Shown: positions 45,893-64,000, numbered from the stretch's first letter. The stretch: DNA of 64,000 nt from a virus (IMGVR_UViG_3300045988_177331); one strand, 5' to 3'. The notes: generated from the sequence alone by a model not told the origin. Translations and numbers: made by a program.

Positions 45893-46534
45893 ATGTCGTC
45901 AAATTTAGTTGAAATTATACAAAGGTATGGAGTAGAGTATATTGGTAGATTTTACTCCGTATATCGTGGAGTTGTAACTAATAATAAAGATGATACTGGG
46001 ATGAATAGACTTAGCCTATATATCCCATCAATACAAAATGGTATAAATGTAATAGCTTTACCAAAATCTACTAGTTTTGGTAGTATAAATTATGGGATTA
46101 AATTAATAACCCCACGTATTGGAGAAGTTGTATATGTGGAATTTGAAAATGGGGACCCATTTAAACCATTGTGGTCTTATCATGGTTGGGCAACTGGAGA
46201 AACCCCAGATGATTTAAAAGATAATAATTCAATAGGATTGGTTACCCCAGAAGGTAACAAGATATTTATAAAAGATATTGATGGGGAGCTTTATATACAA
46301 ACTAACTCCAAAGTAAATATATCAATATTAGAAGGACCAAGTCTTAAAATGACCCAAAAAGGTTTTACATTTAATTTTGGTGATGATTTTAGTTTAAAGA
46401 AAACATTAACCCAAATATTAGATGCTATACTTCAATTAACAGTAACTACTGGAGTAGGTCCTTCTGGTACCCCAATAAATGCACAAACTTTTACTGATAT
46501 TAAGAATTCACTTGATAATTATTTAGAGGAATAG
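45893..46534 (+). CDS. baseplate spike/assembly protein V-like
   Basis: VYRGVVTNNKDDTGMNRLSLYIPS…ITPRIGEVVYVEFENGDPFKPLWSYHGW matches the gpV/VgrG OB-fold pattern (G.V…P.vGd.V.V.F..GD...P). Confidence 0.7.
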   Translation: MSSNLVEIIQRYGVEYIGRFYSVYRGVVTNNKDDTGMNRLSLYIPSIQNGINVIALPKSTSFGSINYGIKLITPRIGEVVYVEFENGDPFKPLWSYHGWATGETPDDLKDNNSIGLVTPEGNKIFIKDIDGELYIQTNSKVNISILEGPSLKMTQKGFTFNFGDDFSLKKTLTQILDAILQLTVTTGVGPSGTPINAQTFTDIKNSLDNYLEE

Positions 46535-46539
46535 AAATT

Positions 46540-46758
46540 ATGTTAGTAAAACAAACAATTAAATCAGAAATAAAATCTGCTTTTACAGAAGTAATGAATC
46601 AAGCAGATGATGATAGGGATGGAGCATTAGATAAAGTATCAGATAAATTGGCAGATGCCATTATTAATGCTATTAAAAGTGCTACCATTACATATACTAC
46701 TGGTCTAGTAACTTCAATGGGTCCAGTAACTGGTACATTTGGTAATACAATATCTTAA
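46540..46758 (+). CDS. hypothetical small baseplate-module protein
   Basis: 72 aa. Confidence 0.5.
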   Translation: MLVKQTIKSEIKSAFTEVMNQADDDRDGALDKVSDKLADAIINAIKSATITYTTGLVTSMGPVTGTFGNTIS

Positions 46759-46770
46759 TAATTTAATATT

Positions 46771-47241
46771 ATGAATCTAGAACAACTCAACTATATAGGA
46801 ACTGGTCCATATTTCCCAATAAAATTAATCACAGTGTTAGATGAAAATGGGAACCCAGAACAAGTTGTACAACCAGATGGTACAATTGTAAATAAAATCT
46901 CTTGGAGAAACCTAAAAGGAGATATTAATCTTATAAAACAGAACCTTACTTCTCTTTTCACATATCAATTAGGTCAAAGGATAAGGCAAGAATATTTTGG
47001 GTCTAGAGTGTGGGAGTGTATTGAAGAACCAAATACTCAAGCCTTATCCTTCATGATAAAAACCTTTGTGAAAAATTCCATAGTTTCCTGGGAACCAAGG
47101 ATAACAGCCTTAGATGTTCAATCAGAAAGAGTATATGATAAAATCCATATACAAATTAGGTTTGCAATCCAAAATCAAACCTCAATAAGTGAATTAAATT
47201 TTGAATATAATCCATCAAATAATACCATCAATGTCAACTAG
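46771..47241 (+). CDS. baseplate wedge protein, gp25/gpW-like
   Basis: IKQNLTSLFTYQLGQRIRQEYFGSRVWECIEEPN…VSWEPRITALDV matches the GPW_gp25 pattern (I.q.l..ll.T..GeR…fGs.l…WEPRi). Confidence 0.8.
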   Translation: MNLEQLNYIGTGPYFPIKLITVLDENGNPEQVVQPDGTIVNKISWRNLKGDINLIKQNLTSLFTYQLGQRIRQEYFGSRVWECIEEPNTQALSFMIKTFVKNSIVSWEPRITALDVQSERVYDKIHIQIRFAIQNQTSISELNFEYNPSNNTINVN

Positions 47242-48985
47242 TAATAATTGGTTAAATCCTTATCAAAGGTCTTTTAATGATATTAAAGCTAAATTAATAT
47301 CCGAATTAAGATTACAAATCCCAGAAATAACTGATTATAGTGAAGGGAATATATTTGTAATCATAATATCCATTTTTGCAGCTATTGCAGAAGTAATTCA
47401 TTATTATATTGATAATATGGCAAGAGAAGCATTTCTTCCAACTGCTAGAAGATATTCTTCTTTATATAAACATGCCAAACTAGTAGATTATCATATTAAA
47501 TCCGCAATTCCAGCTACAGTAGATGTTGTTCTATATAAGAATGATGATACTCCAATTGGTCAGGATATAACAATTCCATTAAATACTGAATTTACATCTT
47601 CAGATGGTAAAACCTGGATATCCACAAAAACTGTTATTTGGTATAAAGACTCCTATTATGTAACTGTACCATTAGTACAACAAAAATCAGTTGGGGTACC
47701 AGATAGAATCCAATTAGGAAATATATTATCACCAGATTCCATAATATATATAACCGATATACCCTCAGACCAAAAATATGTAGAAGGTTCAATGAATCTG
47801 TATATCAATGATGAACCCTGGATTTTGGTAGATACCTTTGCTTATTCTTCATCAAGGGATAAAGTATATAAGATAGAGGTAGATGAACAACTTAGACCAT
47901 ATATAAAATTTGGTGATGGTCAATTTGGTATGAAACCAGAATATAATGCAACCATAGAAGCTTCATATTCATTAACCTATGGTTCAGCTGGTAATATAGC
48001 TACCAATAATTTTACTACTGTACCACAAGATATTCAAGTTATAGACAATAAGATTACAATTAATAATGTAATCCCAGCTACTGGTGGTTCTGACTATGAA
48101 ACTTTTAATATGTTAAAGAATCATATCCCTTTGTCAATAAAAACCCTTGGAGTAGCAATTACTAAAGAAGATTTTGAAGCTATTGCCAAAATGGTTGGTG
48201 GGGTAGATAAAGCTTATGCAAATTATGTTTGCGGAAGATATGTAGAAATTTATATAACCCCAGATGGTGGAGGGGAAGCTTCTAGTGCATTATTAGATTC
48301 TGTTGAAAAAACAATATCCAAAAGTAAAGTAATTACTACTAGCATAGAAGTATTATCTACCCATAAATCCCAAGTATTTTTGGATATAACCATAACTGGG
48401 AAAAAATCCTTTAAATCTAATGATATTTCAAATCAAGTAAAGAAAGCTTTAACTACAGCTTATGATTACAATAATTCAGATATAAACAAACCAGTAAGAT
48501 TATCAGATATATATGCTTTAATTGATAATCAAAGTATGGTTGATTACCTTACCATAAATAAATTATATCAACTACCATATCCAATTCCCCAAAAAAATAC
48601 GAATTTACCATTAAATATTTCATATTTTGTTCAAAACATAAATCCAGTTACTACTGGTGAAGAATATATAGTTATAGTAAATACATTTTTTGCTAATAAA
48701 CATTATGATGTTTTAATACAAAAATACTATGGGGAAGGTTCAGATAATAGAATATTAGGTAAGGGTTCTTATGGGGAGGTGATAAATGTATTAGATTTAG
48801 AAACCCAAACAAAAATAATATTTCAAATCACTATAAATAAACCATCAGAAAATCTGGATTATGGTGAAAATGATAAATATGAATTAACATTATTACCTAT
48901 GAATCAGGATTTATATCCATTATCCTATCAAATTCCAATCATAGAAAATCAAAATATAACCTTATCAATAAATGAAGTCGTTTAA
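47231..48985 (+). CDS. baseplate J-like protein
   Basis: The track start TTG 47201 is replaced by ATG 47231 (MSTSNNW…). 584 aa following gp25-like. IFAAIAEVIHYYIDNMAREAFLPTA is typical of gpJ N-termini. Confidence 0.7.
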   Translation: MSTSNNWLNPYQRSFNDIKAKLISELRLQIPEITDYSEGNIFVIIISIFAAIAEVIHYYIDNMAREAFLPTARRYSSLYKHAKLVDYHIKSAIPATVDVVLYKNDDTPIGQDITIPLNTEFTSSDGKTWISTKTVIWYKDSYYVTVPLVQQKSVGVPDRIQLGNILSPDSIIYITDIPSDQKYVEGSMNLYINDEPWILVDTFAYSSSRDKVYKIEVDEQLRPYIKFGDGQFGMKPEYNATIEASYSLTYGSAGNIATNNFTTVPQDIQVIDNKITINNVIPATGGSDYETFNMLKNHIPLSIKTLGVAITKEDFEAIAKMVGGVDKAYANYVCGRYVEIYITPDGGGEASSALLDSVEKTISKSKVITTSIEVLSTHKSQVFLDITITGKKSFKSNDISNQVKKALTTAYDYNNSDINKPVRLSDIYALIDNQSMVDYLTINKLYQLPYPIPQKNTNLPLNISYFVQNINPVTTGEEYIVIVNTFFANKHYDVLIQKYYGEGSDNRILGKGSYGEVINVLDLETQTKIIFQITINKPSENLDYGENDKYELTLLPMNQDLYPLSYQIPIIENQNITLSINEVV

Positions 48986-49856
48986 GAGTTTTAAACAATG
49001 GGTATTTCCTAATTTATTTCCAGCTTATTATAAGGATTATGATACTTATAAAGATAAGAATGGGAAAGGTATTCTGGAAAGATTCATAGAAGTATGTTCA
49101 AATTATCTAGATACTGATATTATACCAGATATAGATAATTTTATGGATATATTAGATGTGGATGTTACCCCTGATATATTTCTGAATTATTTTTGGGAAT
49201 ATTTTGATTATATACCCTATGCTTATGGGGTATTAGTAAAAGGTGTACCTTTTACTAAAGAAAATGTAGCTAGTTGGTTAAATACTCCAGATGGATTTCC
49301 AAAAGCAGATACTAGAAGTATTTTAAAATATGCAGTATCTTTATATAAAATAAGGTGCACTCAGGATTTTTATACAATACTTGGTAGATTTTATGGAGTA
49401 AGATTTGAATTAGAAGAAATTCTATTCGAGGATGGATATAGTAATAAACCAAGTAATAATCCAGGTATTAACTATAGACTTATAGGCGCTGTATTCGAGG
49501 ATGGATATAGTAATAAACCAAGTAATAATCCAGGTATTAACTATAGACTTATAGGCGCTGTATTCGAGGACGTAGTAAGTACTTATAGTGGAGAAAATGA
49601 ATACTATGGTGATTGGAAAGGATTATATCCATACGGTGATTGTACATCATGTACTACTATAAAAGCCAATATCTATATTCCAAAAGGTATGTATGATGCT
49701 ATTCAGGATAATATAGATAATGTAAAAAATGCTTTTGTCAATTTACTCAATAAATACATACCAGTAAATGTAAAACCATTCACGAAAGATACCATAGAAT
49801 TAATTTCAGAAATACCTACAATTATACCAATAGAAATAGAACCTCAACAAAATTGA
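48972..49856 (+). CDS. tail protein I-like baseplate protein with an internal 23-aa duplication
   Basis: 294 aa after gpJ-like. VFEDGYSNKPSNNPGINYRLIGA occurs twice in tandem. Confidence 0.5.
   Translation: MKSFKSFKQWVFPNLFPAYYKDYDTYKDKNGKGILERFIEVCSNYLDTDIIPDIDNFMDILDVDVTPDIFLNYFWEYFDYIPYAYGVLVKGVPFTKENVASWLNTPDGFPKADTRSILKYAVSLYKIRCTQDFYTILGRFYGVRFELEEILFEDGYSNKPSNNPGINYRLIGAVFEDGYSNKPSNNPGINYRLIGAVFEDVVSTYSGENEYYGDWKGLYPYGDCTSCTTIKANIYIPKGMYDAIQDNIDNVKNAFVNLLNKYIPVNVKPFTKDTIELISEIPTIIPIEIEPQQN
49423..49571 (+). repeat. perfect in-frame 69-bp tandem duplication
   Basis: 49423-49491 equals 49492-49560. The first 10 nt recur at 49561-49570. Confidence 0.9.
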
Positions 49857-49863
49857 CCCAATT

Positions 49864-50496
49864 ATGTTATCCATCCTACTTCAAACTGAAAACCTTAACA
49901 ATTTAACTGAATCAGTTAATAAAGTTACTGATTCCTCTATTAGAATTGCCCAAGCTGCAAATGATTTTGGTGCATTAAGAGTAGCCTTTGGTGTATTTAT
50001 GATTTTTATAATCATAATTGTAATATTGTTTATATGGCAAATATTTGTATTATCTGGCAAATTAAATACCATATATGGAGCAGCTGTCAAAACTACTGAA
50101 TATTTTGAAACTTCTGCAGAAGGGGATATTGGTCCTTCACAAGCTCAAGTAATAGTGAGAAGAAATTTTAATAGTTTAAGTCAAGCAATTAAATATTACA
50201 TTCTTAGAATAAGGCTAGAAAACCATATAGACGATAAAAATAAAATAAAAGTAAAAATAGATAGGTTAGTTAGAAATGAATTTTCAGAACTAACCACATA
50301 TCTATCAAACTTTAAGTGTAATGAAAAGGTTTTAAGTTTTATAGTAGAAGATGATGATATTCAAATGGTTGAAGATTTTATTTTTGAACAGGTATATATA
50401 CCAAAAAATGATTTTACCATATCCAATATGGACCAATCAACCTCTATATTTATAAATGGTCTAAAGCTTTCATATATTAAGAAAATACCACAATGA
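49864..50496 (+). CDS. single-pass membrane protein upstream of the endolysin (holin candidate)
   Basis: 210 aa, one TM helix (VAFGVFMIFIIIIVILFIWQIFVL), ATGA overlap with the amidase gene. Confidence 0.3.
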   Translation: MLSILLQTENLNNLTESVNKVTDSSIRIAQAANDFGALRVAFGVFMIFIIIIVILFIWQIFVLSGKLNTIYGAAVKTTEYFETSAEGDIGPSQAQVIVRRNFNSLSQAIKYYILRIRLENHIDDKNKIKVKIDRLVRNEFSELTTYLSNFKCNEKVLSFIVEDDDIQMVEDFIFEQVYIPKNDFTISNMDQSTSIFINGLKLSYIKKIPQ

Positions 50497-51089
50497 GAAA
50501 ATTGATAGTTATATTAGACCCAGCACATGGGTCAGATGTAAAAGGTAAACGTTCACCAGATGGTACCCATTTAGAATATATATGGAGTAGAGAAATATGC
50601 AAAAAACTAAAAGATAGGCTTATCCTAAATGATTTTAGGGTTAAATATACAAATGAAACAGAAAATGAAATAGGCTTATCAAAGAGAAAAGAAATTGCAA
50701 ATAATATAAAATCAAGTCCTGGTGAATATAAATTTCTAGTAAGTTTGCATAATAATGCTGCTGGGGATGGTACCCAATGGTTAAATGCAAAAGGGTTTGA
50801 AATTTATACTTCAAAGGGGCAAACCATTTCTGATAAATTTGCAACCATTATTTTTAATAATTTAAAAAATGATTTTCCCGGTATAAATGCAAGAGCAGAT
50901 TATATTGATGGTGACCCAGACAAGGAAAGTAATTTCACAGTATTAATGGGAAACTATTATGCTGTTCTAATAGAATGGTTATTCCAGGATAATAAAGAAG
51001 AAGTAATACTTCTAAAAGATAAAACCATTAATTCCAGATTAGTGGATTCTTTAGTAAATTCACTGATTGAAATAGATGAACAATTATAA
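50493..51089 (+). CDS. N-acetylmuramoyl-L-alanine amidase (endolysin)
   Basis: VILDPAHGSDVKGKRSP…E…SLHNNA…E residues fit the zinc-amidase (Amidase_3-type) pattern. Confidence 0.7.
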   Translation: MRKLIVILDPAHGSDVKGKRSPDGTHLEYIWSREICKKLKDRLILNDFRVKYTNETENEIGLSKRKEIANNIKSSPGEYKFLVSLHNNAAGDGTQWLNAKGFEIYTSKGQTISDKFATIIFNNLKNDFPGINARADYIDGDPDKESNFTVLMGNYYAVLIEWLFQDNKEEVILLKDKTINSRLVDSLVNSLIEIDEQL

Positions 51090-57116: not shown

Positions 57117-57527
57117 ATGGCAAAGAAACAAAAACAAAAGGAATTAATAAAACTTGAAGATACAGATATATTGAAACCAATTGATATTTCTCAAATAGGT
57201 TCAAATGGGGACCCATGCTTTGGAAAAGAATATAACCTATCAACCAAGGAATGCAAGATGTGTGGGGATTCAGAATTATGCTGCATAAAATTTGCAGAGT
57301 TAATTGGAAAAGATAGAAAACAATTGGAAAAAGAGAATGAATTTAAGGACTTAGAAAATCTAGTAGATTTAAAAGCAGTGTCAAAAACTATTAGATATTT
57401 GAAAAGGAAAGATGAACCCAAAAAAATAATCCTTGATAAGATTCAAGCAAAATATGAATTGAGCAGGGAAGAAGCTAGAACAATTTATAAATCAGTAATA
57501 AACAAACAAAATGGAAAAAAACAATGA
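57117..57527 (+). CDS. hypothetical Cys-containing protein
   Basis: 136 aa. C..K…CKMCGDSELCC cluster. Confidence 0.55.
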   Translation: MAKKQKQKELIKLEDTDILKPIDISQIGSNGDPCFGKEYNLSTKECKMCGDSELCCIKFAELIGKDRKQLEKENEFKDLENLVDLKAVSKTIRYLKRKDEPKKIILDKIQAKYELSREEARTIYKSVINKQNGKKQ

Positions 57528-58035
57528 ATTAATTTTCACAAGGGTAAGAGATGTTCAATTACCCAAAAGAGCAAATCAACATGATGCAGGAATAGACTTC
57601 TTCTGTCCAGTTCTAGATTCTGAATTAATCCAAAGAATCAATGAGATTAACAATAGTAAGAATGTTATAACAACTCCTGATTTTATTTTGGTAGCTCCTG
57701 GTGCAGATATAACAATCCCATCAGGGGTAAAAGTTTGGATAATGAATAAAGAATCTGCTTTAGTTGCAGCAAATAAATCTGGATTAGCAACAAAGTTTAG
57801 TATTCAATTCACTGCTCAAGTAATAGATGCAGATTACACTGGGGAAATTCATATTGGAATAAGGAATCATGGAAAAGACTTCTTTATGATTAAACCTGGT
57901 GCAAAGTTAATACAATTCCTGCATTTACCAATCATATTATCAGATATCATAGAGGTAGGTAATGATGGGTATAATGATATTGTTGATGGGAAATCAGATA
58001 GGGGAGAAGGAGGATTTGGTTCAACTGGATTTTGA
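57511..58035 (+). CDS. dut: trimeric-type dUTPase (dUTP/dCTP pyrophosphatase fold)
   Basis: All five dUTPase motifs are present: AGIDF, IPSGVKV, QVIDADYTGEI, KPGAKLIQFL, RGEGGFGSTG. Confidence 0.85.
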   Translation: MEKNNELIFTRVRDVQLPKRANQHDAGIDFFCPVLDSELIQRINEINNSKNVITTPDFILVAPGADITIPSGVKVWIMNKESALVAANKSGLATKFSIQFTAQVIDADYTGEIHIGIRNHGKDFFMIKPGAKLIQFLHLPIILSDIIEVGNDGYNDIVDGKSDRGEGGFGSTGF

Positions 58036-58111
58036 TTATGGAAAATACAAATATACAACAAGAGTTAAATGATATTTATATCCATGATTGGTATATTAAA
58101 GACTGAGTGAT

Positions 58112-58996
58112 ATGGATTCAAGAGATATAAAAGAAGAACCAAGTATTCCAAAAGATAATAAGTATCTGGAATCAATATATGAAATGCAAAAACAACTACT
58201 AGATAGTTATATAAGCATTGAAGGGTTACCAAAATACCCATTAAATATAAACACAAAAACCAATCAATTAATCCTAAAAGATTTTACTTCAAGGGTAATT
58301 GAGGAACTTGCAGAAGCTTATGAGAGTTTATTATTAGTGGAGGAATTAACAATAACAAAACAAAATTGGTTCACTATATCATCAACTTCAATTAATTCTT
58401 TTGTTGAATGTATGAATCATTTGCAAAATGCAAGTGAAGAAATGGCAGATGCTTTACATTTCTTCATTGAGTTGTTAATTTACACTAATATACAACCAGA
58501 AGATATTAATTCATACATTGAAAGTAAATTACCAAAGAATAAGAGACAAAACTTCTCAAATACACTTGAATATGGGATGGCATTGGGTAAACAATGGTTA
58601 TCAAATATGAATCAAATCCCAGATGTGAAGAGGAAGAATTTGGTAAACTTAATTCATAAGTATGAACAAGTAAAGGTTGATTTTGATATACCAGAATATA
58701 ATATTAAACTTTTACATTGTGGTGAAGACTACAATTATGAACTTTATAATTCATACAAAAGTTATCTTTGGGATATAACCTATGAACTGAATATATCAAG
58801 GAATTTCCTTAAAAATAAACCATGGAAGCAATCTCAAATGATGACCAATGAATCAGCTTATCAAGAGGAGATAGTAAAGTCATTTATATTATTCCTTGGT
58901 ACATTGAATATAATGGGAGTAAATGGAAGTAATCTGTATTATATTTACTTCAAGAAGAATAAGATAAACCAATTCAGAATAAAATCTAAGTATTAA
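58112..58996 (+). CDS. all-alpha NTP pyrophosphohydrolase, dimeric dUTPase/dCTPase-like
   Basis: EELAEAYES (E..E), EEMADALHFFIELL (E..D.lHF), KNKPWKQ (WK) and C-terminal KKNKINQFRIKSKY (K..N..R…Y), in the order typical of dimeric dUTPase/MazG-type enzymes. Confidence 0.6.
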   Translation: MDSRDIKEEPSIPKDNKYLESIYEMQKQLLDSYISIEGLPKYPLNINTKTNQLILKDFTSRVIEELAEAYESLLLVEELTITKQNWFTISSTSINSFVECMNHLQNASEEMADALHFFIELLIYTNIQPEDINSYIESKLPKNKRQNFSNTLEYGMALGKQWLSNMNQIPDVKRKNLVNLIHKYEQVKVDFDIPEYNIKLLHCGEDYNYELYNSYKSYLWDITYELNISRNFLKNKPWKQSQMMTNESAYQEEIVKSFILFLGTLNIMGVNGSNLYYIYFKKNKINQFRIKSKY

Positions 58997-59985
58997 TGAA
59001 AAGTTTTGTATTTAAAACCGGAGATGAAGCTTGGGCAAGTATAAACAAAATGTTTATTGAACAAGATGAAAAATTAGGATTATTTTCTGATGGACAAGGG
59101 GCTTCAATAACTAATTCACTATATACTTATGGGATGTCAGTATTGATAGAAGAAGCCAAATTTGATCCAGAATTTGATTTTGGGAAGATAATGGGTTATA
59201 CTCAATCTAAATGGAGCAGTTTATTAAATAACTATTTGGACCTTGATTCATTGGATAAATTAAAACTACAAATAAGGGAACTTGAAAAAAATAAAGCCAT
59301 AAACAGAAATTATCATATTGGTTTTAATTTTGCAGATTCTCATGGAAATGGTAAAGGTTGCTTAGTTTCTGGGATGTTCTCAAGAATGATAGGTATTGAT
59401 AAACCAAGGCTTACAATAGTAATGAGAGCTTCAGATGTTGTAACAAGGTTACCTTGGGATTTATTATTGGCTATAAGAATGGGAGAATATGTTTTTGGTC
59501 ATACAGAGTTTACCGTAGAATTATTTATCCGTTCAGCTTTTGCAGATGATACTAGTTTAATGCTTTATAATGGGTATGAACCCATAGAACCTATTATTGA
59601 GAAAATAAAAAATGAAGAAAGGAGAAAGAGATTAAAGAAAGCATTAAAAAGAGTAAAGAAAGCATCAGAAAAAGGTGATGACCCAAAATATCAAGCTTAT
59701 ATGAGGGTATATAAGATATTCAGCCCAGAGAAATATGGTAAAGAATTTAAATCACTTTTTGCTAAGGATTGCATTATTGGTAATTGGGATGGAATACCAT
59801 TGCCAGAAGTATGCCCCTCTATACTTGTAAGGAATCAAATAAAGAAGGTATACTTAAAATTTGTGAACAAGTATAACCTAAATATCTTTTCAAGTGTAGA
59901 TACTAAAAAGAAACTGATAAAGTTTAAGGAAAGTGATGGTTCCATAACTGATTCAATTGAAGATTTAGGTGAAGAAGATGAATAA
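58996..59985 (+). CDS. divergent thymidylate-synthase-fold-like protein, paralogue A
   Basis: GKGC-22 aa-RASD-…-PWD-…-GEYVFGH…RSAF follows the TS order Cys / RxxD / specificity residue / GDxHxY region. Clear paralogue of 59969..60730. Confidence 0.35.
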   Translation: MKSFVFKTGDEAWASINKMFIEQDEKLGLFSDGQGASITNSLYTYGMSVLIEEAKFDPEFDFGKIMGYTQSKWSSLLNNYLDLDSLDKLKLQIRELEKNKAINRNYHIGFNFADSHGNGKGCLVSGMFSRMIGIDKPRLTIVMRASDVVTRLPWDLLLAIRMGEYVFGHTEFTVELFIRSAFADDTSLMLYNGYEPIEPIIEKIKNEERRKRLKKALKRVKKASEKGDDPKYQAYMRVYKIFSPEKYGKEFKSLFAKDCIIGNWDGIPLPEVCPSILVRNQIKKVYLKFVNKYNLNIFSSVDTKKKLIKFKESDGSITDSIEDLGEEDE

Positions 59986-60730
59986 CAATATAACCTGGTT
60001 TCCAGACTCTCTTCTAGCTTGGGAATACTTTAATGAAGTATTTTTAAGTGGGGAAGAGGGTCTTCCTTTTGTTTTTCAAAAAAATGCCACTTACTTATAT
60101 GATGTGGTATTTGGTATAATGGACCCAAGATTACCAAGTAATATTGATTTTGGGAAGTTATTTAATTATTCACAAGCAAAATGGAGATTACTAGTATCTA
60201 ATTACCTTGATGAGTTTGTTATAAATAAAACCAAGAGGGAAGTTACTGATTTACATAAAAAGGGCTTAGTATATAATTATTCAATGTCTTTTACTAATAA
60301 CCATGGATGTGGTAAGAAATGCTTATTATCCATAGTTTTTAGTAAAAGATGTAAAGAAAATAATCCCACAATATCAGTTTATTTAAGGGCATCAGAAATA
60401 ACCAAGAGGTTGATATTTGATTTTCTTTTTGTTCAAAGGATAGGGGAATATGTTTATGGTCATAATAACTTTAAAATGGTATTCCATATAAATCAGATGT
60501 TTAATGATAATACAGTATTATTAATGTATCATGCCCATAAGAATATTATAAAGCTTTTAAAGAAAAAAGAGGATAAAAGGAGTATAAAACTATTGGAAGA
60601 TTTAAATACTTTTCTAGAAAAGCCAATAGATAGCATAAAATATAAAATACATAAAAGGGTTGCAAAAGTTTTACAAGAAGACATAAAAAAACCAGTTACA
60701 TTAGTCAAGGATTGCAAATTACCATTCTGA
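59969..60730 (+). CDS. divergent thymidylate-synthase-fold-like protein, paralogue B
   Basis: Shares IDFGKLFNYSQAKW, GCGKKCLLS, LRASEITKRLIFDFLF and IGEYVYGH blocks with 58996..59985. Confidence 0.35.
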   Translation: MKKMNNNITWFPDSLLAWEYFNEVFLSGEEGLPFVFQKNATYLYDVVFGIMDPRLPSNIDFGKLFNYSQAKWRLLVSNYLDEFVINKTKREVTDLHKKGLVYNYSMSFTNNHGCGKKCLLSIVFSKRCKENNPTISVYLRASEITKRLIFDFLFVQRIGEYVYGHNNFKMVFHINQMFNDNTVLLMYHAHKNIIKLLKKKEDKRSIKLLEDLNTFLEKPIDSIKYKIHKRVAKVLQEDIKKPVTLVKDCKLPF

Positions 60731-60780: not shown

Positions 60781-61515
60781 ATGAGAATTTATGATGATTG
60801 TTATGAGTTGATGTCAGAGATGGGCAGAAACTTATGGGAAATGGGTTCTATAGTTAAACCCAAAACCTATCAAAATAAAGTTATTGAGGGTGATGAGAGT
60901 TATATAACCAGAGAACTTATTTGTGAACAATATTGTTTAACAAGTTTAAATAATGTAGACAAGTTATTCATATATTCCAATTCAAAGGAATGGGCTGATA
61001 ATGAATTCTTAGAAAGGATTAACAATGAACCATTAAATCCTGGTGGAGCTTGGACATTAAGAAAAGATATATGGGAACAATTTTTGGTAGATGGTAAATT
61101 TGATTATACCTATTCTGAAAGAATGTTTGATTCTTTAAGGTCAGTAATTAGTTTACTGAAAAATGACCCAGATACAAGAAAAGCAGTACTTCCAATTTTT
61201 AATGGGGAATATAACAATGATTGTAAATATTATGATGGTAGTAAACGTATACCATGTTCCATGTATTATGATTTTTTAGTGAGAGAAAATCAAAAAGGTG
61301 AAAAGGTATTAAATATTTGTTACCATCAAAGGAGTTCAGATTTTGTAACCCATTTTGGTAATGATGTTTATCTTTCATGGAAGCTTATGGAATTTGTTGC
61401 AAATAAAATTGGGGTAAAAGCTGGTTATCTATATCATACAATAGATTCTATACATTCTTATAAAAAGGATTGGATTTTATTAAAAACATCTCTAAATGAT
61501 TTAAGAGGATATTAA
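60781..61515 (+). CDS. thymidylate synthase family enzyme, deoxypyrimidylate C5-(hydroxy)methylase type
   Basis: LLKNDPDTRKAVLPIFN (cf. ThyA QLKNDPDSRR…WN), catalytic-type IPCS, HQRSSDFVTHFGNDVY (cf. QRSCDVFLGLPFNIAS), DSIHSY (cf. GDTHLY). Asp sits at the ThyA Asn177-equivalent position. Confidence 0.75.
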   Translation: MRIYDDCYELMSEMGRNLWEMGSIVKPKTYQNKVIEGDESYITRELICEQYCLTSLNNVDKLFIYSNSKEWADNEFLERINNEPLNPGGAWTLRKDIWEQFLVDGKFDYTYSERMFDSLRSVISLLKNDPDTRKAVLPIFNGEYNNDCKYYDGSKRIPCSMYYDFLVRENQKGEKVLNICYHQRSSDFVTHFGNDVYLSWKLMEFVANKIGVKAGYLYHTIDSIHSYKKDWILLKTSLNDLRGY

Positions 61516-61520
61516 TAAAC

Positions 61521-64000
61521 ATGAAAACCAGGTACCATATAATAAAGAGTTACAGTGAATTAGAAAAGTTAGTAGAAGCATGCCTAAAAACTGGGTATGC
61601 TTCTGTTGACTTTGAAACTAATGCTGAACCTATATACAATGATACATTTAAACCAACCATATTATCAGTAACCTTTCAACCAGGTTCTGGGATATCAATA
61701 CCATTACAACATTTTGAATGTAGTGAATCCCATATAAATAAAACATGGTTGGAATGGTTAACATATTTTGGTAGAAATGTAATTGAGAATCCAAATGTAG
61801 TAAAAATAGCTTGGAATTGGAAATTTGATAATCAGATATTCCAAAGATATAATATATATTCAAGGGGTACTGTAATAGATGGTATGCTTGCTAAATATCT
61901 TTTAAATGAAGAAAGACCAAATGGTTTAAAGGATATGGTAAGAAGATTTTTACCTGAGTTTTCTGATTATGAAAAATATGATTCATTTGATTCAATACCT
62001 TGGTCAAAAAAACCATTAAAAAAGTTATGTGAATATGGTTGTATGGATACAGATTTTACTTTTAGGTTATCCATATTTTTTGAATCATTCTTAATTAAAA
62101 AAGGGTTTTATAATTTATATAGGAATCTTATAATGCCAGCAAGTAAGGTATTACAAAGTGCTGAAAAGAATGGGTTACCATTTGATGTTGAATTGAATGT
62201 TAAACTAAGGGAAAAATATAATAATCTTATAAATGAATACAATACTAAATTAAGGTCAATAAGAACAGTTCAGAGATATCAAAATTATATAATAAAGAAA
62301 AGAAAAGAAGATTATATTGAAACTCTAGAAAGTGAAATAGAAGAATTAAGGGAAGAGGGAAAAGATAGACAAGTAAAAACAAGGGAACAAAAATTATCCA
62401 GAATAATAGCTGGGGAGTATACAACAAAAGCTGAACTAAAATTAATAGAGGAAGTAAACTTTAGTTCACAAAAACAAATGGTGGACCTATTATATAATTC
62501 AAATCATGGGTTCAAATTCCCAGTTATTGCTTATACAGTTGATAAACATAAAAAACCAACAAATAATCCATCAACTGCAGAAGATACTTTAATAAAACTA
62601 AAAGAACATGATAAATCTGGGTTTATAGATACTCTTTTGGATTTAAGGGGAGTACAAACCATAAATTCCACTTTTATTGTTGGACTAGGGGATTTGGTAC
62701 AAAGTGATGGTGGGGTACACCCTACATTTCTTATCCATGGTTGTGTATCAGGTAATACTAAATTGATAGGTAAAGAAAATGATATAAGGATAGAGGATAT
62801 ATGTCCTAAAGAAGTAGGGGTATTAAATGTAGAAGATAAGAATATATGGGTATTATCCCATGAGGGTACTTGGGAACAAGTAACACATACCATAAATAAG
62901 GGCAAACAACCATTATATAAAATCACTACTAAAAATGGTGATATATTAAGGTGTACAAAGGAACATAAACTTTTAACACCAAAGGGGTGGAAGAGGGTAT
63001 CATATATATTTAAGCATAACCTAAACGTGGTAATGTATGATACTTCAAAATTAGATATAACTAAACCAATTGTAGGTAAAAAATATGATGAGATAATATT
63101 TAGGGATATACCAGGTTGGGATGGGTACATAGCTTCATCAGAGGGCAAAATATATTCAGTAAAAATTCCAGGTGGAAGGGGTATGTTAGATTATAATCAC
63201 CCCCATGAATTAGTTCCAAGGGAATGGAAACCTGGGAGGTTAAGAGTGTATCTGAGGAATAACTCTAAAAAGAAGTATTCTTTCTCAGTGTCCCATTTGG
63301 TATGGATGGCTTTTAATAATAAGTTACATATACCAGAAAAGATGGTAATAGACCATATAAATTGTAATACTCTTGATAATAGACCTGAGAATCTACAGTG
63401 TATAACCTATTCAGAAAATATAAAGAGAGCTTATACATGTACTAGAACAGCATTTACTAGTAATGGTATTAATGGTACTAATAAATTTAATACACTGACC
63501 ATTTCTAAAGTACTAGAAGATTATCAGAATGGGTATACTCAAGCAGAAATATGTGAAAGATATAATATATCCCAAAAACAGGTATCAGGTATAGTTAATG
63601 GTCAGAGGAGAAAAGATATATATCTAACAAAATTGGTATCAATGGAATATGAGGGGGAGAAGACCATATATGATTTATCAGTAAATGATAAGCATAGTTA
63701 TATAACTAGGTCGAACTTTATAAACTCCAATACAGTTAGCGGAAGATTGTCAAGTAGAAACCCCAATGGTCAAAATATACCAAAGACCATGGTAAATCCA
63801 GATGTTAAATTGCAATTTATTCCCCCAAAAAATCAATTATTCCTATCTTATGACTATTCACAAGCTGAATTAAGAATATTAGCTCATTTAGCAAATGAGA
63901 GTACAATGTTGGAGTGGTTTAGAACAGGGAAGGATATCCACCTTGCTTCAGCTTGTAAAAAATATCATGAAGATTATGATGAGATAATAAAGATATATCA
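61521..64000 (+). CDS. family A DNA polymerase (3'-5' exonuclease + polymerase), 3' partial, interrupted by an intein
   Basis: Hand translation is open from ATG 61521 to the window end. Exo motifs VDFETN, WNWKFD, YGCMDTD. Polymerase motifs TVSGRLSSRNPNGQNIP and DYSQAELRILAH. Confidence 0.9.
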   Translation, partial: MKTRYHIIKSYSELEKLVEACLKTGYASVDFETNAEPIYNDTFKPTILSVTFQPGSGISIPLQHFECSESHINKTWLEWLTYFGRNVIENPNVVKIAWNWKFDNQIFQRYNIYSRGTVIDGMLAKYLLNEERPNGLKDMVRRFLPEFSDYEKYDSFDSIPWSKKPLKKLCEYGCMDTDFTFRLSIFFESFLIKKGFYNLYRNLIMPASKVLQSAEKNGLPFDVELNVKLREKYNNLINEYNTKLRSIRTVQRYQNYIIKKRKEDYIETLESEIEELREEGKDRQVKTREQKLSRIIAGEYTTKAELKLIEEVNFSSQKQMVDLLYNSNHGFKFPVIAYTVDKHKKPTNNPSTAEDTLIKLKEHDKSGFIDTLLDLRGVQTINSTFIVGLGDLVQSDGGVHPTFLIHGCVSGNTKLIGKENDIRIEDICPKEVGVLNVEDKNIWVLSHEGTWEQVTHTINKGKQPLYKITTKNGDILRCTKEHKLLTPKGWKRVSYIFKHNLNVVMYDTSKLDITKPIVGKKYDEIIFRDIPGWDGYIASSEGKIYSVKIPGGRGMLDYNHPHELVPREWKPGRLRVYLRNNSKKKYSFSVSHLVWMAFNNKLHIPEKMVIDHINCNTLDNRPENLQCITYSENIKRAYTCTRTAFTSNGINGTNKFNTLTISKVLEDYQNGYTQAEICERYNISQKQVSGIVNGQRRKDIYLTKLVSMEYEGEKTIYDLSVNDKHSYITRSNFINSNTVSGRLSSRNPNGQNIPKTMVNPDVKLQFIPPKNQLFLSYDYSQAELRILAHLANESTMLEWFRTGKDIHLASACKKYHEDYDEIIKIY
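62742..63731 (+). mobile_element. intein (330 aa) with an HNH homing-endonuclease module, in frame inside the DNA polymerase gene
   Basis: Begins CVSGNTKLIG after …PTFLIHG. TxxH block LRCTKEHKLLT. IPGWDGYIASSEGKIYS plus SHLVWMAF…IDHINCNTLDNRPENLQ. HTH-like YTQAEICERYNISQKQVSGIV. Ends …FINSN before Thr+1 of TVSGRLSS. Confidence 0.85.

Follow-up and report, generated by a model that had tools for sequence, protein, structure and literature searches.

Genes at the locus

The window, that is, the whole stretch of 64,000 nucleotides of viral DNA that was analysed (IMGVR_UViG_3300045988_177331), contains two adjacent open reading frames, paralogues A and B, which are located between the genes of an NTP pyrophosphatase and a thymidylate synthase (TS) homologue, with PolA following from position 61521 (Table 1). 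Both frames were recovered on the plus strand exactly where the sequence-only reading had placed them. The stop codon of the pyrophosphatase overlaps the start of A (TAATG), and the end of A is overlapped by B whether B is translated from the GTG at 59969 or, as may be the case, from an ATG at 59978, which would yield a product of 250 aa as in cluster P0121.

Table 1. Coordinates of the genes and active-site segments at the locus
Feature	Position	Strand	Product or remark
Trimeric dUTPase-like protein	57511..58035	+	174 aa; Pfam dUTPase 9e-12; PHROG 135 3e-27
Dimeric-dUTPase/MazG-type all-alpha NTP pyrophosphatase	58112..58996	+	294 aa; dUTPase_2 3.2e-7; PHROG 12184 8e-21
Paralogue A	58996..59985	+	329 aa; ORF; TS-fold family member with ~80-aa C-terminal extension and acidic tail
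Cys122 codon of A	59359..59361	+	putative nucleophile; equivalent to C146 of E. coli ThyA (hhalign); invariant in 69 members
R144-A-S-D147...R151-L-P-W154-D155 of A	59425..59460	+	equivalent to ThyA R166-S-C-D169...G173-L-P-F176-N177 (hhalign)
Paralogue B	59969..60730	+	253 aa from GTG; ORF; TS-fold family member
Cys118 codon of B	60320..60322	+	putative nucleophile; invariant alignment column
R140-A-S-E143...R147...F150-D151 of B	60386..60421	+	equivalent to the ThyA R166...N177 segment
TS homologue (partner)	60781..61515	+	244 aa; R143/S147/H173/D177 subtype; Pfam PF00303 E=1e-14

A and B are paralogues, and their similarity is well above chance (BLASTP E=3e-37, 32% identity over 233 residues), which bears out the colinearity proposed from the sequence. 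All of the motifs on which that proposal was built are present, in A and B respectively: FDFGKIM and IDFGKLF, YTQSKW and YSQAKW, HGNGKGCLVS and HGCGKKCLLS, MRASD and LRASE, MGEYVFGH and IGEYVYGH, and RSAFADD and NQMFNDN. The duplication is ancient, and B is nearer than A to the single-copy forms of other phages. The pair had also been described as fast-evolving, but in a comparison of 76 related gut-phage loci the divergence of A and B was about that of the adjacent genes for the dUTPase and the pyrophosphatase, and this description is not supported. A Lys-rich C-terminal extension of ~90 aa had been noted in A; the extension exists, but it is about 80 aa long (residues 250–329) and mildly Lys-rich (11 K, 14%), with an acidic tail that ends in EDLGEEDE. 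A strongly basic helix (residues 203–228 of A) is common to both proteins, and its conserved sequence is KIKNEERRKRLKKALKRVKK.

The pyrophosphatase likely has a dCTPase/dUTPase role, and the PHROG that it matches is annotated as 'nucleotide pyrophosphohydrolase'. The trimeric dUTPase-like gene is a member of the gut-phage clade cassette, and its position is conserved in 79+ loci. In the TS homologue, R156 corresponds to position 143 and D195 to position 177, together with C159 (hmmalign), and the best PDB sequence matches of the protein are 9iqu/9iqc and MilA. It belongs to a TS subtype characterized by R143, S/T147, K/Q127, H173, N/D176, and D177, in which R126 is kept. The protein is predicted from its sequence to be dCMP-specific and to be no dTMP synthase, the latter because a canonical ThyA is encoded beside the R143-type subtype in L039, L044, L099, and Triscuit.

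Fold and active-site residues of the paralogues

The AF2 models of A (pLDDT 85.5, pTM 0.80) and B (pLDDT 95.0, pTM 0.92) were compared with the PDB by Foldseek, and all of the matches at E<=1e-3 (40/40 for A, 17/17 for B) have the TS fold, with a probability of 0.99–1.00. The best match of A is AfhB (9iqu, E=1.3e-6), and the top 12/12 matches of B are cytosine-specific TS-fold enzymes, namely MilA, T4 dCMP hydroxymethylase, and AfhB; the TM-scores of the two models against solved TS-fold structures are modest (0.35–0.60). When the profile of a 69-sequence family alignment was aligned by hhalign with that of 16 TS-family sequences, a probability of 94.5% and E=7.6e-8 were obtained over 182 columns, and the motif register of the sequence-only reading was reproduced. 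The relationship to TS claimed there is thus confirmed by the fold matches and the profile alignment alike.

At the sequence level, the family is only ~10% identical to TS. Searches of Pfam, NCBIfam, and PDB sequences with A and B returned no match, in line with the earlier remark that the pair could be placed in no characterised family, and PF00303 (Thymidylat_synt) matched neither A, B, nor 32+20 members of the family, even at E<=1. The sole match in PHROGs is PHROG 13667, of unknown function, and two family members were tagged 'pyrimidine hmase synthase' by an independent annotation pipeline. The lack of sequence-level matches and the low identity might point to a chance resemblance of motifs on an unrelated fold. 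This is extremely unlikely, however, as two independent confident models retrieved only TS-fold structures, the profile–profile alignment brings the catalytic residues into register, and the label on the two members came from an independent source; an unrelated fold is refuted by the Foldseek results for both proteins together with hhalign. A and B probably represent an unnamed, Pfam-less, phage-specific branch of the TS/dCMP-hydroxymethylase fold superfamily.

In TS enzymes, R166 is a ligand of the nucleotide phosphate and activates Cys, R126/R127 are 5'-phosphate ligands donated across the dimer, His207/Tyr209 bind the deoxyribose 3'-OH, and the Asn or Asp at position 177 reads the pyrimidine N3/C4 edge. 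In the hhalign alignment, C122, R144, D/E147, Y80, and D155 of A are paired with C146, R166, D169, Y94, and N177 of ThyA. The nucleophile Cys is followed by the R166-x-x-D169 motif in both paralogues (C122, R144, D147 in A; C118, R140, E143 in B), and the Cys-to-Arg spacings are those previously read from the sequence, 22 residues in A and B against 20 in ThyA and 25 in the 60781 product. Position 177 carries the cytosine-type signature, an Asp that is invariant (D155 of A and D151 of B) and lies 11 residues after the Arg, as from R166 to N177 in ThyA; the equivalent of the general base Tyr94 is also invariant (Y80 in A, Y79 in B), and that of Trp80 is kept in A/B. Among the 69 sequences, down to 17% identity, there is no variation at K72, Y80, C122, R144, and D155 and next to none at E147, R151, and R237. 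The Cys, Arg(+11)Asp, Tyr set, every residue of which is retained by A and by B, is also kept in a remote branch consisting of PMBT14 gp48, Muddy gp47, GTE2 orf39, Zuko gp75, Triscuit gp64, P744 ORF027, and CPD4_74. [quoted passage not shown] The core covalent-catalysis residues and the invariant Asp at the N177 position are the reason why A and B are proposed to be active enzymes.

The pocket is otherwise altered, as had been expected from the sequence. H147 is replaced by Leu and H207 by Met/Leu, besides the exchange of N177 for Asp, and position 143 (L143 in ThyA) is Gly in A and B (Gly119) and G, T, K, D, N, S, or L elsewhere in the family. Neither hhalign nor the family alignment revealed a conserved Arg at the position aligned with Arg126/Arg127, before strand 106–111; other conserved basic residues, K72, R151, and R237, may serve as substitutes. 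The replacement of the GDxHxY block, as claimed earlier, holds for the His (H207), but the Tyr (Y209) is kept in the A/B clade as Y191 in A and Y187 in B, with ...DDTSLMLY aligned to ...GGDTHLY of ThyA in the hhalign register; its conservation is confined to the gut clade, and elsewhere the position is variable. Tyr takes the place of the acidic D169 equivalent in the actinophage branch alone, and outside the gut clade the residues that correspond to F176 and W80 vary; Cys and Arg are invariant family-wide. With H207, H147, and R126/R127 lost and the equivalents of D169, F176, and W80 variable, the use of folate is therefore doubtful.

Longer family members, of up to 483 aa, have no recognisable additional domain, and one of them has a weak AT-hook. 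This AT-hook, the conserved basic helix KIKNEERRKRLKKALKRVKK, the extra conserved Arg/Lys residues (R151, R237, K72), and the missing ligands for the mononucleotide phosphate and the 3'-OH (R126/R127, H207) would fit a post-replicative DNA enzyme that flips a (modified) cytosine from DNA and forms a Cys–C6 adduct as in C5-DNA methyltransferases. Such a role is very improbable, however, as the gene neighbours are enzymes of the nucleotide pool (pyrophosphatase, kinase, deaminase) and not DNA transferases, and the equivalent of R166, the phosphate-binding and Cys-activating Arg, is retained. To our knowledge, no TS-fold enzyme acts on polynucleotides.

Distribution of the family and its gene module

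The family comprises about 256 clusters at 50% identity. It is widespread among phages that infect Actinobacteria, Proteobacteria, and Clostridia, where its association with one specific TS subtype is conserved; a restriction to Bacteroidota phages, which had been raised with the initial observation, is not borne out. The module has the order (dNMP kinase), NTP pyrophosphatase, one or two family members, R143-type TS homologue, (deaminase), and PolA, and is carried by gut phages, C. perfringens CPD4, Pseudomonas PMBT14, Yersinia P744, Gordonia GTE2, Streptomyces Zuko, Microbacterium Triscuit, and Mycobacterium Muddy (gp47). The order pyrophosphatase, family member, TS (R143, D177) was found at 80+ gut-phage loci, and the same pyrophosphatase/family/TS order recurs in independent lineages (L017, L018, L099, L101, L103–L105, L107–L109). 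The pyrophosphatase is located upstream of the family member in all lineages examined, confirming across phage genomes the co-occurrence with a dimeric-type pyrophosphatase that had been suggested. A dNMP kinase gene adjoins the module in most phages and a deaminase is present in many, and the linkage of the module genes is accompanied by translational coupling, with frequent overlaps of start and stop codons. The copy number of the family varies; in the cassette described here, three cytosine-type TS-fold proteins (A, B, and the neighbour) are encoded, which is seemingly redundant for a simple pathway. No description of the family turned up in searches of the literature on the related GenBank records, on the modifications of Muddy, PMBT14, Serbin, and CPD4, or on the module.

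The close linkage to the TS homologue, the translational coupling of the genes, the varying copy number, and the absence from the family of R126/R127, H147, and H207, together with the retention of R126 in the partner, are also compatible with pseudo-enzymes or regulatory/scaffold subunits that hetero-oligomerise with the R143-type TS homologue. Such subunits would tune the specificity of the TS or tether it to the replisome with no chemistry of their own, and A does end in an acidic C-terminal tail of a kind typical of replisome-interaction motifs. We consider this unlikely for A and B. Pseudo-enzymes normally lose residues needed only for catalysis or nucleotide binding, whereas Cys, Arg, Asp, and Tyr are invariant here among sequences of as little as 17% identity and in the remote branch too, and a family member is retained in L002- and L100-type phages with no TS nearby.

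The TS partner is missing or distant in L002, L100, and L101. In L002-type phages, a single family member is encoded together with a pyrophosphatase and a dCMP deaminase but no recognisable TS, which suggests that a family member can act as an enzyme alone. A 205-aa gene that takes the place of B and TS in L002 was considered as a possible relative and rejected, as no similarity to either the family or TS could be detected in it. The L002 arrangement mirrors the logic of phage Xp12 with the family in the TS role and, together with the cytosine-type Asp, the Cys/Arg/Tyr set, and a gut-clade LP(W/F)D that is much like LPFN of ThyA, would agree with each family member being a stand-alone dCMP C5-methylase or hydroxymethylase, independent of its neighbour, in which case the supply of modified dCMP would be duplicated or diversified, or a second modified base would be made. 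The almost obligate pairing with one TS subtype across distant phages would, however, be unexpected for independent enzymes, the folate-pocket residues are not kept family-wide, and 5mC is made by Xp12 without the family. Complete independence from the neighbour therefore seems improbable.

Proposed function and comparison with known systems

On balance, we favour the reading that A and B are active Cys-dependent enzymes whose substrate is a cytosine nucleotide and which work jointly with the TS homologue next to them; enzymatic activity, a mononucleotide substrate, and this cooperation are inferred. A and B would bind a cytosine mononucleotide, either dCMP or C5-substituted dCMP, and their Cys thiol would add to C6, activating C5. 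The setting would be a conserved pre-replicative 'dC-replacement' module in which the all-alpha NTP pyrophosphatase may remove dCTP/dUTP and supply the monophosphate. Modification of the cytosine nucleotide may fall to the family member(s) and the R143/D177-type TS homologue beside them, and its re-phosphorylation to the dNMP kinase; in many phages, the deaminase would divert part of the pool to a thymine-type nucleotide, and the adjacent PolA would incorporate the product. Tentatively and speculatively, the family member and the R143-type TS may act one after the other on the same nucleotide, the TS first putting a one-carbon unit on C5 and the family member then re-forming the Cys–C6 adduct/exocyclic methylene to install the final substituent. 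TS enzymes function as obligate dimers with shared active-site arginines, and a hetero-oligomer in which R126 of the partner completes the phosphate site of the family member could be a likewise speculative alternative. It is rather doubtful, though conceivable, that the family and the R143/H173/D177 TS constitute a two-component TS-fold system whose product is neither 5mC, 5hmC, nor 5hoC, or which employs a non-folate cofactor, in the way that AfhB employs flavin.

Phage DNA base modifications determine the sensitivity to restriction, CRISPR, and other defences and supply enzymes for epigenetic sequencing. Current surveys, such as MetaGPA, locate the pathways via Pfam domains, and a conserved component without a Pfam model is therefore invisible to them. 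Here, a widespread cytosine-replacement module appears to include, as a standard part, a second protein of the TS fold whose catalytic Cys is intact. This protein is almost always accompanied by one unusual TS subtype, and the characterised pathway by which Xp12 makes 5mC lacks it. If the two-component reading were true, an undescribed DNA base would be present in a large set of cultured phages, and the carriers would include Muddy, many Gordonia phages, Serratia and Pseudomonas siphoviruses, CPD4-like phages, and an abundant ~77-kb human-gut clade. The family member and its TS partner may turn out to carry out a new reaction of the TS fold or to make a new modified base, and hundreds of 'hypothetical protein' annotations could be improved, with relevance to therapeutic phages.

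E. coli ThyA shares the fold and has equivalents of C146, R166, D169, Y94, and W80 in the family, and its GLPFN corresponds to RLP(W/F)D of the gut clade. In contrast to ThyA, the family has N177 replaced by Asp, L143 by Gly, H147 by Leu, and H207 by Met, and lacks equivalents of R21/R126/R127 and the C-terminal folate-closing segment; a canonical ThyA is encoded alongside the family in some phages. The deoxycytidylate hydroxymethylase gp42 of T4 (1b5d, 6a9a) also has the same fold (Foldseek E about 1e-5 to 1e-4), shares the Cys, the R166 and Tyr94 equivalents, and the Asp at the N177 position (D179 in T4), and is likewise phage-encoded in a pyrophosphatase-linked dC-replacement context. However, the family is only ~9–13% identical to gp42, lacks a PF00303 match, R126/R127, and H207, has N- and C-terminal helices of its own, and accompanies a bona fide TS homologue instead of being the only one. 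In T4-type dCMP hydroxymethylases, an acidic residue at L143 lets water attack the exocyclic methylene, in addition to Asp177 (PMC13326640); A and B possess Asp177, but Gly119 occupies position 143 in place of an acidic residue. The CMP 5-hydroxymethylase MilA (5b6d, 5jnh), the top structural match of B (E=6e-7), is cytosine-specific with altered sugar recognition. MilA belongs to a bacterial antibiotic pathway, carries Asp at 143 as well as at 177, and has a recognisable PF00303, whereas the family lacks both an acidic residue at 143 and the Pfam signature.

AfhB, an RB69 gp48-type flavin-dependent 5-hydroxy-dCMP synthase (9iqu, 9iqc), is the best structural match of A (TMt 0.58) and gives the highest TM for B (0.52/0.60). 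It is also a short TS-fold protein with the cytosine-type Asp and provides an example of the TS fold giving up folate chemistry. D169N is diagnostic of 5-hydroxy-dCMP synthases (PMC13326640), whereas the family has Asp147 in A, Glu143 in B, and Tyr in actinophages, with no Asn at the D169 position among the members examined; by this criterion, a 5-hydroxy-dCMP synthase identity is ruled out for A/B and for the neighbouring TS. No arabinosyl- or glycosyl-transferase genes were seen in the annotated part of the window. An assignment of A/B to AADT/aGPT-Pplase (PUGT), an idea that arose from a weak PF18724 match of the neighbouring TS, was also rejected, as A and B do not match PF18724 and the crystal structure of PUGT is a novel helical fold (two-helical bundle) that is not TS-related (PMC11472151).

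A parallel in gene organization is the dCMP methyltransferase cassette of the Xp12/PaMx74 type, which consists of a pyrophosphatase, a TS, and a 5mC-selective deaminase (bioRxiv 10.1101/2024.12.05.627091). No family member is present in Xp12, a known 5mC phage; a 257-aa gene upstream of its TS was considered as a hidden member and proved to be a MazG-type pyrophosphatase (hhalign probability 0.1). The Xp12 TS has N143/P147/R127/G173/Y176, unlike the R143/S-T147/K-Q127/H173/N-D176 subtype that accompanies the family, and the logic and gene order of the two cassettes are the same, with an N177D TS homologue at the centre and PolA alongside.

Fold of the paralogue pair

The paralogues A and B (Table) align over 233 residues with 32% identity and 55% positives (BLASTP, E=3e-37). 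All of the motif blocks quoted for them in a sequence-only reading were recovered, in colinear order. The Cys and the Arg are 22 residues apart in both A and B; E. coli ThyA has a spacing of 20 residues, and the thymidylate synthase (TS) homologue starting at 60781 (the 60781 product) one of 25. The pyrophosphatase stop and the start of A overlap in a TAATG junction, and the start of B falls within the final codons of A, indicating that the three genes are translationally coupled. The low-confidence C-terminal extension of A ends in an acidic tail, EDLGEEDE, presumably resembling the replisome-interaction tails of phage SSB-type proteins, and is partly alignable with the extensions of some single-copy members (P0163 and P0157).

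Features of the replication region and its surroundings
Feature	Position	Strand	Support or remark
Myovirus-type baseplate genes (gpV-like, gp25-like, baseplate J-like) and Amidase_3 endolysin	45893-51089		upstream of replication module
136-aa Lys-rich protein with CxxC...CxxC-like cluster (CFGKEY...CKMCGDSELC)	57117-57527	+	
Trimeric dUTPase-like protein and 294-aa dimeric-dUTPase/MazG-type pyrophosphatase, side by side	57511-58996		
Paralogue A, 329 aa, ATG start	58996-59985	+	ORF
C-terminal extension of A, ~80 aa	59743-59985		low confidence
Paralogue B, 253 aa from GTG at 59969 or 250 aa from ATG at 59978	59969-60730	+	ORF
TS homologue	60781-61515		Pfam PF00303, E=1e-14
PolA (DNA polymerase I), after the cassette	61521-64000	+	DNA_pol_A 9e-35, in two stretches
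Intein inside PolA, with HNH homing endonuclease and HTH	about 62784-63731	+	Intein_splicing 2e-14 (residues 422-737), HNH_3 4.5e-12 (Pfam)

No Pfam-A or NCBIfam model matched A or B, even at E<=1, or any of 52 diverse relatives, and a 32-member family profile found nothing significant among PDB sequences; the single family match was PHROG 13667, of unknown function (E=9e-5). AlphaFold2 models built from family alignments were confident, with a pLDDT of 85.5 and a pTM of 0.80 for A, and 95.0 and 0.92 for B, and all of their PDB matches in Foldseek were TS superfamily structures. The top match of A was AfhB, the dCMP hydroxylase of phage HY126 (9iqu, E=1.3e-6, TMt 0.58), with T4 dCMP hydroxymethylase, MilA, and many TSs ranking next. 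For B, the first 12 matches were cytosine-specific enzymes (MilA at E=6e-7, T4 dCH, AfhB), with uracil-specific TSs ranking below. TM-scores to solved TS-fold structures were 0.35-0.60, which points to a shared but substantially remodelled fold. Among predicted viral structures, Pseudomonas phage PMBT14 supplied the first match beyond obvious orthologues (an uncharacterised protein, E=1.6e-8), which ranked before TS and gp42 homologues. The models and the profile alignment described below thus bear out the proposed TS fold, and a non-TS origin is refuted by the TS-only fold matches and the significance of that alignment.

Conserved residues of the family

An exhaustive HMM search placed the relatives of the pair in 256 representative clusters at 50% identity. 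A 69-sequence family alignment from this search, reaching down to ~17% identity, was compared using hhalign with a TS reference comprising E. coli ThyA, T4 gp42, RB69-type and DLP-type 5hodCMP synthases, SP8 dUMP hydroxymethylase, further TS homologues from phages, and the 60781 product. The two aligned over 182 columns (probability 94.5%, E=7.6e-8) in the register previously drawn by eye, so the motif order on which the TS relationship was proposed stands. In this alignment (A numbering first, ThyA second), W73 pairs with W80, Y80 with Y94, G119 with L143, C122 with C146, L123 with H147, R144 with R166, D/E147 with D169, R151-L-P-W154-D155 with G173-L-P-F176-N177, M189 with H207, and Y191 with Y209. 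The canonical H-x-Y block had been considered absent; its His is indeed gone, but its Tyr is kept in the A/B clade. Equivalents of H147, H207, and the cross-subunit phosphate ligands R126/R127 are lacking from the family.

Five residues (K72, Y80, C122, R144, and D155) are invariant in all 69 diverse members and nine more are at least 90% conserved (N17, Y68, W73, L76, F112, L123, E147, R151, and R237); A, B, and their orthologues retain all of them. The surviving Cys/Arg/Asp/Tyr set is relevant solely to nucleotide binding and covalent catalysis. The invariant D155 lies at Arg+11, the same spacing as from R166 to N177 in ThyA, and Asp at position 177 has been reported as the determinant of the preference for dCMP over dUMP (PMC13326640; bioRxiv 10.1101/2024.12.05.627091). 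The persistence of this set over very large distances argues for an active enzyme family whose members use a cytosine nucleotide, the Cys thiol adding to C6. That A and B are instead a non-catalytic partner is possible, but carries lower weight.

The linked TS and the conserved module

The 60781 product is a genuine but unusual TS homologue, with AfhB (9iqu/9iqc) and MilA as its top PDB sequence matches. According to hmmalign, it carries C146, R166, D169, H207, and Y209, together with R143, S147, K127, H173, N176, and D177, and is predicted to be dCMP-specific by published criteria. The same criteria rule out a 5hodCMP synthase, since D169 is kept. Its residue at 143, Arg, matches neither the hydrophobic state (methyl) nor the acidic one (hydroxymethyl).

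When 103 retrieved loci were scanned locally with HMMs, ~80 loci of the gut-phage clade showed a helicase, then a trimeric dUTPase, a dimeric-dUTPase/MazG-type pyrophosphatase, two family members, and TS, in that order, in line with the suggested co-occurrence with the pyrophosphatase. Related phages (L006) have a single family copy; L006 also carries an additional weak dUTPase-like gene between the trimeric dUTPase and the pyrophosphatase. In L002, an orphan 205-aa gene (L002:8795-9412) and a dCMP deaminase come after the single copy and occupy the place of B and TS (also in L003); TS is absent, and no similarity of the 205-aa protein to TS or the family was detected. The same core occurs in independent lineages, including Clostridium perfringens phage CPD4 (pyrophosphatase CPD4_73, family member CPD4_74, and TS CPD4_75, with PolA next), a Manatee Spring phage, and two IMG/VR contigs (L099, L101). 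In every case, the linked TS bears the R143/S-T147/H173/D177 signature.

A tblastn search with an R143-type TS found 114 phage records, including 68 Gordonia, 10 Clostridium, 9 Mycobacterium, 6 Serratia, and 5 Pseudomonas phages, besides phages of Streptomyces, Brevundimonas, and Microbacterium. Every inspected record has a 260-350-aa 'hypothetical protein' directly upstream of TS, usually with a 4-nt overlap, which profile comparison identifies as a remote family member: hhalign supports PMBT14 gp48 (probability 96.8%, E=2.4e-10), Muddy gp47 (95.7%, E=9.7e-9), and GTE2 orf39 (96.2%, E=2.6e-9), and hmmsearch supports Zuko gp75 (3e-8), Triscuit gp64 (1.5e-12), and Yersinia P744 ORF027 (3e-19). 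These members retain the Cys, Arg, Asp(+11), and Tyr80, and the actinophage branch has Tyr at the D169-equivalent position. Their genes recur in one order: a thymidylate-kinase-like gene comes first, then NTP pyrophosphatase, the family member, TS (R143, D177), deaminase, and PolA. In public annotation, the family member is a 'hypothetical protein' in Muddy (gp45-gp49, L104) and five further loci (L105, L107, L108, L103, L109), and in two records members are labelled 'pyrimidine hmase synthase', evidently by an automated remote-homology pipeline. A literature search found no paper describing the family. Overall, A and B are members of an unnamed phage-specific family with the TS fold, and this family is widespread.

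Many cultured phages, among them the therapeutic Mycobacterium phage Muddy, have the linked TS annotated as plain 'thymidylate synthase'; by the residue criteria, the R143/D177 TS is unlikely to make dTMP. A canonical ThyA (L143, H147, G173, F176, N177) is also present in L039, L044, L099, and Triscuit (gp67), and this coexistence shows that the linked TS is not the dTMP synthase. In L039 (6993-7970) and L044 (3668-4639), the ThyA gene lies exactly between A and B; such insertions show the cassette to be a hotspot for the gain of nucleotide-metabolism genes.

Across 76 complete gut-phage modules, at ~58% helicase identity, A and B were 51% and 45% identical, compared with 44% for the trimeric dUTPase, 52% for the pyrophosphatase, and 68% for TS; the pair is therefore not unusually fast-evolving, contrary to the initial proposal. 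A neighbour-joining tree resolved three deep clades (A-type, B-type, and single-copy forms), with the A clade on a long stem, which indicates that the duplication is old. Mosaic cases indicate recombination inside the module: the near-identical phage L022 and the window (58-61.5 kb) share 97% identity in the helicase, 100% in A, 83% in B, and 80% in TS, implying a breakpoint between A and B.

Elsewhere in the window, the 136-aa gene sits between an SF2 helicase and the dUTPase, overlapping the dUTPase start; its product has no family match, and relatives carry a small gene at the same place. The Pfam dUTPase_2 match of the pyrophosphatase is limited to its C-terminal ~70 residues. The insertion site of the PolA intein immediately precedes the T(V)SGRLSSxxPNxQNIP motif; in the related phage L004, the polymerase is either split or has a fragmented annotation, and its intein match is weak. 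ARAGORN found no tRNA genes in the 64-kb window.

Predicted role and comparison with Xp12

The constant place of the family among nucleotide-pool enzymes and its translational coupling with one particular subtype of TS argue that a family member and the R143-type TS probably make a modified dCMP jointly before replication. The partner TS keeps R126, unlike the family, and is altered at G173 and F176, whereas gut-clade members keep the LP(W/F)D segment; these contrasts would fit either two sequential steps in one pathway or a hetero-oligomeric enzyme. An independent, parallel methylase or hydroxymethylase and a DNA-level enzyme are possible alternatives of lower weight than this cooperation. 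In L002-type phages, a family member and a deaminase occur in the absence of TS, which suggests that a member may also function alone. The predicted function is experimentally accessible.

Phage Xp12 replaces C with 5mC, and its dCMP-methylating TS has been characterised (bioRxiv 10.1101/2024.12.05.627091). Its cassette consists of a MazG-type pyrophosphatase, TS, dCMP deaminase, and DHFR and lacks a family member; the gene upstream of its TS reached an hhalign probability of 0.1 against the family. The Xp12 TS is of another subtype (N143, P147, R127, G173, Y176), which indicates that the family tracks the R143 subtype of TS rather than cytosine replacement in general.
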